In this document: one piece after another, positions 9,366 to 15,623 of the stretch
How the letters are laid out: the number at the start of each line of letters is the position of its first letter
Position numbering within the stretch: the stretch's first letter is position 1
Assembly (NCBI RefSeq): GCF_001278055.1
Contig: NZ_CP010802.1
Span: 1,681,504 to 1,713,503 of the forward strand
Length of the DNA: 32,000 nucleotides
Direction of reading: 5' to 3'
Source: Desulfuromonas soudanensis
GTDB taxonomy: Bacteria; Desulfobacterota; Desulfuromonadia; Desulfuromonadales; WTL
Notes under the pieces: model-generated
The model's database searches: none
Seen by the model: only the letters and a program-made list of their open reading frames with translations
What the model was told of the DNA's origin: nothing
Program-made: the position numbers and the translations under genes

Positions 9366-9581
9366 GTGTATTTTCGTGAAGGCGAAAACTGCTACCGGTT
9401 TTCCGGAACGAACCGGATCGCTGTTCTGGTCGATTGTGCGATCTACTATCGAGTCGTCGCCGGAGCTTGCGAATTTGCCCGGCAGGCCATTTATATCCTT
9501 GGTTGGGATGTTGACAGCCGGATTCGTCTGCGCCGGGGAGAAGACGGAGATCAGGAGACTTTGGGTCAGTTCCTGGATTGA
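9366..9581 (+). pseudogene. Phospholipase D-family protein, N-terminal 71-aa fragment only
   Basis: FREGENCYRF..NRIAVLVDCAIYYRVVAGACEFARQAIYILGWDVDSRIRLRR resembles the N-terminal region I recall for long PLD-like proteins. The frame ends at ...LGQFLD* about 20 nt before repeat H1. No HKD motif is present anywhere downstream. Confidence 0.6.
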
Positions 9582-9600
9582 CTGGTGCAGGAAATGCAGG

Positions 9601-9687
9601 GGGCAAGGTTTCAGGGGTCGGGCAAGGTTTCAGGGGTCGTGTCTCCATTCTTCATATAATGAAGAATGGAGACACGACCCCGTTAAC
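9601..9687 (+). repeat. Composite repeat H1: 19-bp tandem duplication, 23-bp perfect hairpin, GTTAAC
   Basis: GGGCAAGGTTTCAGGGGTC x2 (9601-9638). GGGGTCGTGTCTCCATTCTTCAT-ATA-ATGAAGAATGGAGACACGACCCC (9633-9681). GTTAAC (9682-9687). Homologous copy at 14737-14819. Confidence 0.9.
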
Positions 9688-9917
9688 TGAGCCTATTTAC
9701 TGCACGATTCCAAGCAGGAGTTGGTCGATCGTATTTACCTTGGAATCGAAGAGTTCAACAGAGAGCCGGTCATATTTCGCTGGCGATACAAAATAGACGA
9801 ACTGGCCAGCGCATAGTTGATATGTTATTAGCAGAACGGACTACTAGTGTCCCGTTTGGTTAGTCCATTCAGATAATTCTGAGGCATTTTGGTCGTTGCT
9901 TTTTCCCGCCCCCTTCG

Positions 9918-14140: not shown

Positions 14141-14587
14141 TCACTCCGGAATCACCGGCTCGACGAGCGTCGCAAGCTGGGCGAGGGATTCCTGCCATCC
14201 GAGATAGCACATCTCCACCGGAATCGCTTCCGGGAGCCCCTCCTGCACGATGTTCACCTCGGTTCCGCACGACACGGGTTTCAAGGTCACGGTCGTCTCC
14301 ATCTCGCCGGGGAGGTTCGGATCGTCGAAGCTGTCCGTGTAGCGGATGCGCTCGTTGGGCAACAGTTCACGGTACACGCCGCCGAAGGAATGCCCCTGGC
14401 CGGACGAGAAGTTGGTGAATGACATTTTGTAGGTTCCGCCGACTTTGGCATCCAGGTGGTGCACCCTGCAGGTGAATCCGTAAGGCGGAAGCCACTTGGC
14501 CATGGAGTCGGCATCGAGAAAGGCACGGTAGACGCGTTCCGGGCTGGCCCGGAGGACGCGGTGAAGTCGGACGGTTCCTTTGGGCAT
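14141..14587 (-). CDS. SRPBCC/Aha1-domain protein (paralog of 6372..6878)
   Basis: MPKGTVRLHRVLRASPERVYRAFLDADSMAKWLPPYGF... I trimmed the track ORF to the Met at 14587, which is preceded by AAAGGAGG. Confidence 0.75.
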   Translation of the reverse strand: MPKGTVRLHRVLRASPERVYRAFLDADSMAKWLPPYGFTCRVHHLDAKVGGTYKMSFTNFSSGQGHSFGGVYRELLPNERIRYTDSFDDPNLPGEMETTVTLKPVSCGTEVNIVQEGLPEAIPVEMCYLGWQESLAQLATLVEPVIPE

Positions 14588-14736
14588 GGTCAAACCTCCT
14601 TTACCTTGCAGCGGGGAGGGGGTCGGGTGTGGGTTGTTCACCCCATTCACCAACATTTTACCCCATACCGGCGTCCATTGCTGGCAGTCCCGCTTCCCGA
14701 TTGCGTCCTCGGGGCCCAAGAGCTGCCTGAGTGCAT

Positions 14737-14819
14737 GGGTCGTCTCAGGGGGCGGGTCGTCTCAGGGGGCGGGTCTCCATTCTTCATATAGTGAAGAATG
14801 GAGACACGGCCCCGTTAAC
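14737..14819 (+). repeat. Composite repeat H2: 17-bp tandem duplication, hairpin, GTTAAC
   Basis: GGGTCGTCTCAGGGGGC x2 (14737-14770). GTCTCCATTCTTCA-TATAG-TGAAGAATGGAGAC core hairpin (14773-14805). GTTAAC (14814-14819). Ends 9 nt from the NERD gene stop. Confidence 0.9.
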
Positions 14820-14828
14820 GACCCTGAT

Positions 14829-15623
14829 TCAGGAATATGGCACTACATTTCGACATTCAGGGAATTTGATACATACCCAGTATTTCTTTCCAATATCATC
14901 ACCGGACTTCTTCTCTCTTATTTTCAATTCGCTACCGCATGCCTTGCAGGTATTAGCGGCTATAACTGGATTTGCAGTATTATATTTGGGTGTCGCAGAC
15001 ATATCTTTAGTATTATTATGTTTTTCATTATTAATAGTCTTTACATGCTTTATATGGTCTCTATTTGTTTTGATTGAAGGAGTCAGTCTGCCCGCCTCAA
15101 TCTTGTTAACTATCTCTCTCACGTTTTCAACAGGCAAAACAAGCCTAGTCTTTGATTTTATAAATTTAATATAACCGATACCATGAGTAACGTTTTCAGG
15201 CATATTTGTTTTAAATGTACTTTCACCAACAAAAACAATCAGTGAATGTATTTGGTTCTCACTTAAGCCCAGGAGTGATTGCAAGGTTTTCACATGCTTG
15301 TAATTTTGACGCAATGGATTTTGAAATTTACTCTTATATTTAAAAATTTGTTGTGTCCATGTACTCTGATTGGGACCACCAAAAATCCATCCCTTCATAT
15401 TTTTGGTTTCAACAACAAAAATGCCGTATTTTGAAACAATGACATGATCAATTTGAGTAGTTCCGTCCTCCGTTGGCATCGTGACGTTCTTTATAAGATG
15501 ATACTCATTTTTATCAAGCATCAACTTTGCTGCAACATTTACAATAAACTCACCCATCACACCCTTGAACCAGGGTGATTTCATTAAAACAGCAATAATA
15601 ATAATTAGTATAAAGAATATCAT
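14829..15623 (-). CDS. NERD-domain protein with an N-terminal TM helix and a C-terminal topoisomerase-type C4 zinc ribbon
   Basis: GEFIVNVAAKLMLDKNEYHLIKNVTMPTEDGTTQIDHVIVSKYGIFVVETKNMKGWI is the NERD core. CKACGSEL...WVCIKFPECRN is the zinc ribbon. The gene is markedly AT-rich. Confidence 0.8.
   Translation of the reverse strand: MIFFILIIIIAVLMKSPWFKGVMGEFIVNVAAKLMLDKNEYHLIKNVTMPTEDGTTQIDHVIVSKYGIFVVETKNMKGWIFGGPNQSTWTQQIFKYKSKFQNPLRQNYKHVKTLQSLLGLSENQIHSLIVFVGESTFKTNMPENVTHGIGYIKFIKSKTRLVLPVENVREIVNKIEAGRLTPSIKTNRDHIKHVKTINNEKHNNTKDMSATPKYNTANPVIAANTCKACGSELKIREKKSGDDIGKKYWVCIKFPECRNVVPYS

Follow-up and report, generated by a model that had tools for sequence, protein, structure and literature searches.

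What are H1 and H2, two hairpin-bearing repeats of the Desulfuromonas soudanensis chromosome, and what produced the short tandem duplication that runs into each hairpin? Both lie in one stretch of 32,000 nucleotides, here called the window, and positions below are those of the window unless marked as genome positions. The positions, tandem units, hairpins and GTTAAC hexamers described for the two copies in the initial annotation were all confirmed by direct checking. H1 starts with two exact 19-bp units in tandem (9602-9639, plus strand; units 9602-9620 and 9621-9639) of the sequence GGCAAGGTTTCAGGGGTCG, each made up of 12 nt of outside flank (GGCAAGGTTTCA) and the first 7 nt (GGGGTCG) of the tip of a terminal inverted repeat (TIR). 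The final 7 nt of the second unit open a 49-bp palindrome (9633-9681), which was recognized by nhmmer (E = 3.7e-14), by folding and by alignment of its arms as a head-to-head dimer of TIRYT-type TIRs, and which is followed by GTTAAC (9682-9687). The palindrome has a perfect 23-bp stem with the loop ATA and, folded as DNA, reaches -32.6 kcal/mol with a z-score of about -10.

H2 is built in the same manner. Its two exact 17-bp units (GGGTCGTCTCAGGGGGC; 14737-14770, plus strand; units 14737-14753 and 14754-14770), whose repeat runs on for 5 more nt, lead into a second palindromic TIR dimer (14765-14813; E = 3e-12, and folding), again followed by GTTAAC (14814-14819). Read as its reverse complement, the H2 unit is the right flank of another copy of the same family, X1 (CCCCCTGAGACG). 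The folding energy (-32.1 kcal/mol, z about -9) is close to that of H1, while the perfect hairpin previously attributed to both copies holds for the 23-bp stem of H1 and only for the inner 14 bp of H2, where the outer stem carries three mismatches (GGGGGCGGG opposite CACGGCCCC).

The two copies have the same (direct) orientation, and their arms are joined by a loop of only 3-5 nt. A common 33-nt core was matched twice with no mismatches, against an expectation of 0.00 from shuffled sequences. Outside the palindromes, both have TCA (3 nt) to the left and GTTAAC to the right, but GTTAAC is absent as a feature of the wider palindrome family described below. The shared hexamer is left unexplained by the reading of H1 and H2 as TIR dimers. 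No direct repeat of the kind expected of a target-site duplication was found flanking the palindromes. On both strands, the G+C-rich stems of H1 and H2 lack a following run of T, and an intrinsic terminator was rejected, as it had been on first reading of the letters.

In the whole 3.96-Mb genome, the exact 33-nt core has just these two occurrences, and it was not found in 60 genomes of the same order or in the collection of species-representative genomes. Its absence elsewhere argued against a common REP element, until a looser profile showed a family. This profile, prompted by weaker BLAST matches, was built from eight palindromes, and its search of the genome returned 12 full and about 8 half copies, H1 and H2 included. 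The family consensus is a 49-bp palindrome that reads GGGGTCGyGTCTmmAnnnTTsA, then a loop, then the complement. Its outer 12 bp are conserved, the inner stem varies on both arms together so that complementarity is kept, and the loop is the least conserved part. The copies are dispersed over at least 12 loci and are mostly solitary, with clusters at genome positions 610-613 kb, 1280-1283 kb, 1581-1588 kb, 1691-1696 kb (H1 and H2 themselves) and 3587-3589 kb. It had been proposed that a motif found genome-wide at ordinary gene 3' ends, and not linked to rearrangements, would be a REP-like stabilizer or terminator element; the exact motif turned out not to be genome-wide, yet it belongs to a REP-like repeat family.

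These data bear directly on one of the explanations first put forward, namely that H1 and H2 are recombinase sites with inverted arms around a central spacer. In its fullest form, they would be direct-repeat sites of a tyrosine/Xer-like or attC-like system, with the 5.1-kb zinc-ribbon/nadR/pnuC/GCAxxG/SRPBCC block between them as the insertion unit. The direct orientation and the shared TCA and GTTAAC flanks speak for such sites, as do the position of H1 at a gene break and the G+C content of the intervening block, which is lower than that of the window's edges. However, low G+C extends over the whole 8-21 kb region and is not confined to the H1-H2 block, and the loop, which would be the spacer, varies more than any other part of the family. 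All 16 Phage_integrase matches of the genome lie outside the window, and domain searches revealed no tyrosine recombinase and no Y1 gene within it; a linked recombinase, as suggested for checking, is thus missing from the window. The dispersal of mostly solitary copies and the identity of the arms with TIRs of Y1 elements (see below) count further against this explanation, which we consider highly improbable. As to particular site types, H1 and H2 resemble integron attC sites in forming hairpins, in lying at gene 3' ends, in bounding gene blocks in direct orientation and in having GTT beside the stem. They differ from attC in that the stem is perfect, without extrahelical bases, an R''/L''-L'/R' organization or R''/R' core sites, in that GTTAACT and GTTAACG do not fit GTTRRRY, in the lack of an integrase nearby, and in a block that holds five genes on both strands. 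An attC identity was rejected, as was a Xer/dif-like site, whose defining features are absent from H1 and H2.

Beyond this genome, the palindrome was detected with a degenerate pattern in 17 contigs, which come from Geobacter, Desulfuromonadales, Syntrophotalea, Desulfobacteraceae and other MAGs. A slightly looser pattern had matches in only 5 of 233 genomes of the order, D. soudanensis having more of them than any other. In one MAG that carries three copies (L004, L009 and L011), a flank of 11-12 nt is conserved between copies. Taken with the flanks shared by H1 and H2, this conservation suggests that the mobile unit may reach a few nt past the palindrome. The three contigs belong to MAG JBAYZR01, which is labelled Pedobacter sp. 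although its palindromes are of the Desulfuromonadales type, and they show the richest nested duplication, on both sides; this could reflect a mislabelled bin or a transfer of the element between phyla. A motif search of the supplements of the Geobacter metallireducens genome paper and a full-text literature search for GGGGTCGCGTCT gave no match.

Where, then, do the arms come from? The genome has ten matches to the Y1_Tnp (IS200-like) domain, none of them in a gene within about 100 kb of H1 or H2. The intact paralog P1 (genome 1281687-1282664; 326 aa) combines a Y1_Tnp domain (E = 6.7e-11), with HLH and GRYK motifs visible in its translation, and a Bac_DnaA_C domain (E = 1.2e-6), which lies just below the Pfam cut-off in P1 and above it in P1 orthologs. 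With the NCBIfam REP-tyrosine-transposase model, P1 scores 68.7 bits against a cut-off of 80. The gene is bracketed by GGGGTCAGGTTTGACAAACGG and its inverse, giving a 1005-bp unit with TIRs of its own of the GGGGTCAGG type; a full copy of the palindrome family is found at a distance of 1.4 kb and a half copy at 0.2 kb. No 49-bp palindromes were found near the P1 orthologs of other genomes, and the dimers are therefore no constant companion of the P1 ortholog. P1 thus has a full palindrome on one side and a half copy on the other, and each of them is preceded, in direct orientation, by the same sequence of about 21 nt, GAGCTAATCTGAGGACAGCAG (genome 1280187-1280217 and 1282834-1282864); the pair brackets 2.6 kb that include a gene for a 431-aa beta-propeller-like protein.

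A closer relationship was seen with P4, a split Y1 paralog (genome 1581981-1587722) that is interrupted by a RIT element and an IS. A RIT element comprises three tyrosine-recombinase genes in a row. The ends of P4, GGGTCAAGTCTACACATTTGACAAGG and the inverse of GGGGTCGCGTCTACACTTTTGACAAAT, are mutually inverted and would be 1050 bp apart minus the insert. Both are matched by the palindrome profile (right end, E = 5e-5; left end, E = 0.07), being among the half copies that it found. In ungapped comparison with the arms of the palindromes H1, X2 and C, the P4 ends are identical at 24 of 27 positions for X2 and at 19 of 27 for H1, which for H1 amounts to an identity of only about 70%. P4, the Y1 gene with the TIRs most similar to the H1 and H2 arms, is split by a RIT element, so that H1 and H2 may be immobile now.

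Elements of this type are common. Homologs at 45 of 52 near-full-length loci, from many phyla, form units of about 1.0 kb with TIRs of 25-32 bp starting GGGGTCAGG, and one scan of species-representative genomes yielded more than 590 TIRYT relatives. In D. soudanensis itself, three near-identical RIT-like elements with 33-bp TIRs (genome 1582149-1587027, 3798857-3802358 and 3846577-3852331) each sit inside a different TIRYT gene, and all three break the protein at about residues 59-69, which suggests that the RIT-like element targets a conserved sequence of TIRYT genes. Their 33-bp TIRs differ in sequence from the palindrome arms and the elements sit inside Y1 genes; H1 and H2 were not accepted as RIT ends.

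TIRtrons have been described as RAYT-like genes between TIRs that share GGGGWSAS, forming moderately abundant families in which TIRs are present singly and, in many cases, as dimers or in clusters (Di Nocera, De Gregorio and Rocco 2013, PMC3733652). Quentin et al. (2018, PMC6006769) equate Y1 proteins with a Bac_DnaA_C or HTH tail, their TnpA_REP subclass 2.1, with the TIRYTs of Di Nocera et al. The present genome holds such a Y1 HUH gene with an HTH/Bac_DnaA_C tail; the gene lies between TIRs carrying GGGGWSAS, in P1 as at the 45 of 52 loci elsewhere; and P4 connects the repeat with the TIRs of such a gene, with a departure at one tip position. This departure concerns position 7 of the motif in H1 and H2 (tip GGGGTCGT), and the right TIR of P4 (GGGGTCGC) is also one position off GGGGWSAS. 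Given the homology of the arms to TIRs and the TIR dimers reported in PMC3733652, H1 and H2 can be read as head-to-head TIR dimers of a described class. One of the options first named, a non-autonomous mobile element of which H1 and H2 would be an end or a scar, was thereby borne out, as the arms are homologous to the TIRs of Y1 (TIRYT) elements in this and other genomes. Judged by their sequences, H1 and H2 belong to the known TIRYT/TIRtron class and not to a new kind. Most likely, they are non-autonomous TIR dimers of a TIRYT/TIRtron element that were moved by its transposase, with the tandem duplication as a by-product.

The tandem duplication (hereafter, the stutter) is not particular to H1 and H2 but characterizes the family. 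Under a strict test, requiring two adjacent full units with no more than 10% mismatch and the second unit ending inside the tip, a stutter was present in 4 of the 12 palindromes of this genome and in 6 of 18 from other genomes; of the 90 TIRtron ends of an independent set, 13 had one. Among controls, 6 of 4000 random positions and none of 190 unrelated perfect hairpins (stems of at least 13 bp) of this genome were positive, as were 14 of 2000 positions chosen at random within the loci of the independent set. The stutter thus occurs at 14-33% of ends or copies as compared to 0.7% at most in controls, an excess that speaks for cutting and rejoining by the transposase. Looser stutters were recognized by eye at genome positions 1019028, 1280218, 1587760 and 3587842. 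No stutter of flank plus tip was found in the passages of PMC3733652 and PMC6006769 consulted.

The stutters share a geometry. The unit always consists of outside flank plus the first nucleotides of a TIR tip, and units mostly end after GGGGTC, GGGGTCA or GGGGTCG/AG, at a point 6-8 nt inside the tip. Most flank parts are 5-14 nt long (up to 23 nt in the independent set) and periods are mostly 12-20 nt. Where units are stacked (L011, L009, L019 and L028), the start of the flank is constant and the length of tip varies: 12 nt, 7 nt and full in L011; 32 nt, 7 nt and full in L009; and 7 nt, 7 nt and full in L019. Junctions show at most 1 nt of microhomology; in copy X2, for example, ATAA is followed by CTTAAGGGGTCG, by CTTAAGGGGTCG again, and then by TGTCT. 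Stutters are also found at the single TIRs of gene-bearing elements: the left end of P4, P3, P6, L019, L028, L030, L033 (both ends), L037, L038 and L045.

Two further loci may be mentioned here. In L019 (positions 90-545; Desulfuromonadales MAG RHLS01000069), a palindrome of the family lies where a TIRYT gene is truncated after about 138 codons, and the stutter at the left TIR of this gene is triple, with aaaaagaacaGGTGTCA present three times. In D. soudanensis, three partial copies of a TIRYT paralog with TIRs of the GGGGACGCTGCTTG type (genome 1108317-1110910), each spanning its left end and the first ~150 codons, stand in tandem ahead of the gene at periods of about 470-580 bp, with a 31-bp duplication of flank plus TIR at each copy; this looks like a large-scale version of the stutter.

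Long palindromes stall replication and stimulate nearby rearrangements. The duplications could thus have arisen by hairpin-induced replication or repair error without any transposase, in which case H1 and H2 would be relics marked by plain slippage and without activity. That the Y1 gene nearest to them in TIR sequence, P4, is broken fits with such relics. We nevertheless regard plain slippage as quite unlikely, as none of the 190 unrelated perfect hairpins of the same genome has such a duplication, and as the stutter is seen at single TIRs of gene-bearing elements, which are not long palindromes. Moreover, the junctions cluster right after GGGGTC(A/G) and have 1 nt of microhomology or less. 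Considering this geometry, the fixed start of the flank and the near lack of microhomology, a product made by an enzyme is favoured over slippage.

How might an enzyme make a stutter? The parent would be an element of about 1.0 kb that encodes a Y1 HUH single-strand-DNA transposase with a DnaA-C-like helix-turn-helix tail, between TIRs of 25-32 bp starting GGGGTC(A/G). We infer that this transposase recognizes the TIR tip, or its single-strand hairpin at the replication fork, and moves or copies dimers such as H1 and H2 in trans. Two break-and-join points would straddle the tip, one 6-8 nt inside, after GGGGTC(G/A), and the other 5-14 nt outside. Were the inner point on one strand joined to the outer point on a second strand, the flank would be duplicated together with the tip. 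Alternatively, a nick at the outer point might be extended until synthesis stalls in the hairpin, with the displaced strand then being religated. The more specific notion that the stutter is the footprint of TIRYT catalysis at two fixed points (after GGGGWSAS, 6-8 nt inside the tip, and ~5-14 nt outside) is put forward tentatively, as a possibility that may well prove incorrect. If true, the mechanism of TIRYTs could be read from genomes and tested with oligonucleotides, and clusters of TIR or REP elements with reiterated flanks would be explained. The junction after GGGGTC(A/G) offers a concrete prediction of the enzyme's cut site.

The surroundings of H1 indicate that such repeats can be associated with gene disruption. 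Upstream of H1 is the N-terminal remnant of a phospholipase-D-like (PLD) gene (9366-9593, plus strand; about 77 of about 710 codons), which is 70-73% identical to full-length genes in two relatives (G023 and G096). It corresponds to the 71-codon open reading frame before H1, with homology that crosses an in-frame TGA and ends at about position 9593. At this TGA (9579-9581), the relatives have Arg (FVERLV in G023 versus FLD*LV here), and the remnant was thus also hit by a point mutation or decayed after truncation. Homology to the PLD gene ends 8 nt before the duplication in H1; the truncated gene does abut H1, as first described, but at 8 nt instead of the ~20 nt given then. The rest of the gene is absent elsewhere in the genome, where the only related sequence is a 59%-identical paralog (genome 462718-464412). 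In relative G096, an ArsP gene (89% amino acid identity) is followed by a full-length PLD gene. Given this end of homology and the intact ArsP-PLD arrangement in G096, H1 lies at the end point of a true deletion or rearrangement. The H1 element, or recombination at H1, probably took part in the local rearrangement that cut off the PLD gene. As for an empty site, only the ArsP-PLD synteny is kept in G096, and exact-protein look-ups returned only the D. soudanensis genome. The expectation that copies mark synteny breakpoints therefore holds at H1, but no break is evident at H2.

Some 160 bp after H1, at 9846-9899, is a 54-bp fragment of an IS end (96% identical) whose repeat is multi-copy and IS-like, occurring at genome 1588704-1588865 and about 10 other places. 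A Logan contig of run SRR2104627 ends inside this fragment, at window position 9874.

H2 is located differently. It occupies a 109-nt spacer between two co-directional minus-strand genes, an NERD nuclease-domain gene (14829-15623) and an SRPBCC/AHSA1 gene (14141-14719), the start of the latter being 18 nt from the H2 stutter. The stop codon of the NERD gene (14829-14831, minus strand) is 9 nt from H2, in agreement with the distance first noted. This position raises the possibility that the hairpins act at the RNA level, as REP-like 3' stabilizers, processing sites or attenuators, with H2 in a NERD-SRPBCC transcript and any mobile origin secondary or long past. The very stable stems (z about -9 to -10) are consistent with such a role, as are T-rich runs that follow members in other genomes (GACCCCTTTGTTTTT in L015, L016 and L018), and REPs are known to stabilize upstream mRNA (PMC3733652). 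However, a U-tract is missing on both strands at H1 and at H2, and H1 follows a pseudogene, with the nearest gene end 230 nt away. Searches of Rfam, which also bear on the possible protein-bound structured RNA named among the first options, gave no match above threshold; the weaker matches were all to mir-BART20, a long generic model of a hairpin. A role in RNA would also explain neither the homology to TIRs nor the stutter, and we consider it unlikely as the primary reason for these repeats.

On the reading as TIRYT-derived dimers, H1 and H2 are of interest for several reasons. They could be mis-annotated as recombination sites or regulatory RNAs, while they appear to be TIRYT repeats in a Desulfuromonas genome, and the PLD pseudogene shows that such repeats are able to sit at gene breaks. 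TIRYTs are very widespread, and the consulted portions of PMC3733652 and PMC6006769 report no biochemistry for them, whether transposition, cleavage or binding. The main interest of the finding is that the stutter might serve as a readable footprint of an uncharacterized transposase.

It is instructive to compare H1 and H2 with known systems. With Tn3-derived TIMEs and other MITEs, they share the organization of gene-less inverted ends of a parent transposon, and GGGGTCG is like the start of Tn3/Tn21 inverted repeats; GGGTCGTCTCAG in the H2 unit likewise resembles the Tn21 inverted repeat. However, TIMEs call for a Tn3-family DDE transposase, inverted repeats of 38 bp and a target-site duplication of 5 bp, whereas here the parent is of the Y1 and not of the DDE type, there is no target-site duplication, and the genome (99.99% complete) has no match to the Tn3 transposase domain PF01526. 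Tn3/Tn21 ends and TIMEs were rejected on these grounds. The IS200/IS605 elements (IS608 and ISDra2) share with TIRYTs a Y1 HUH enzyme acting on single-stranded DNA, a cleavage offset from the hairpin, and the lack of a target-site duplication, but they have unlike subterminal hairpins and no TIRs, and their proteins of ~150 aa lack an HTH tail.

The resemblance to REP/REPIN sequences and their RAYTs is stronger: short palindromes go with a Y1 HUH transposase, domesticated or IS-like, whose gene has copies at its sides, doublets form long hairpins, and copies are intergenic. REPs carry an unpaired GTAG or CGTC tag at one end of an imperfect palindrome of 20-40 bp. The present family differs from REPs and REPINs in that both tags are missing from the two ends of H1, of H2 and of the other members, in that a single arm forms no strong hairpin, and in occurring in tens, not hundreds, of copies. 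The TIRYT protein differs from RAYTs in its score below the NCBIfam cut-off and in its extra DnaA-C-like domain. The repeats match the TIRs of TIRtrons in their link to a Y1 HUH gene with a DnaA-C-like tail and 25-32-bp TIRs starting GGGGTCAG (which fits GGGGWSAS), and in the single, dimeric or clustered gene-less copies present in moderate numbers. They are unlike the TIRtron motif in having G instead of A at position 7, and unlike TIRtron TIRs in that the dimers are nearly spacerless, which makes them perfect or near-perfect palindromes of 49 bp. In function, H1 and H2 may best be likened to a REPIN or a minimal MITE.
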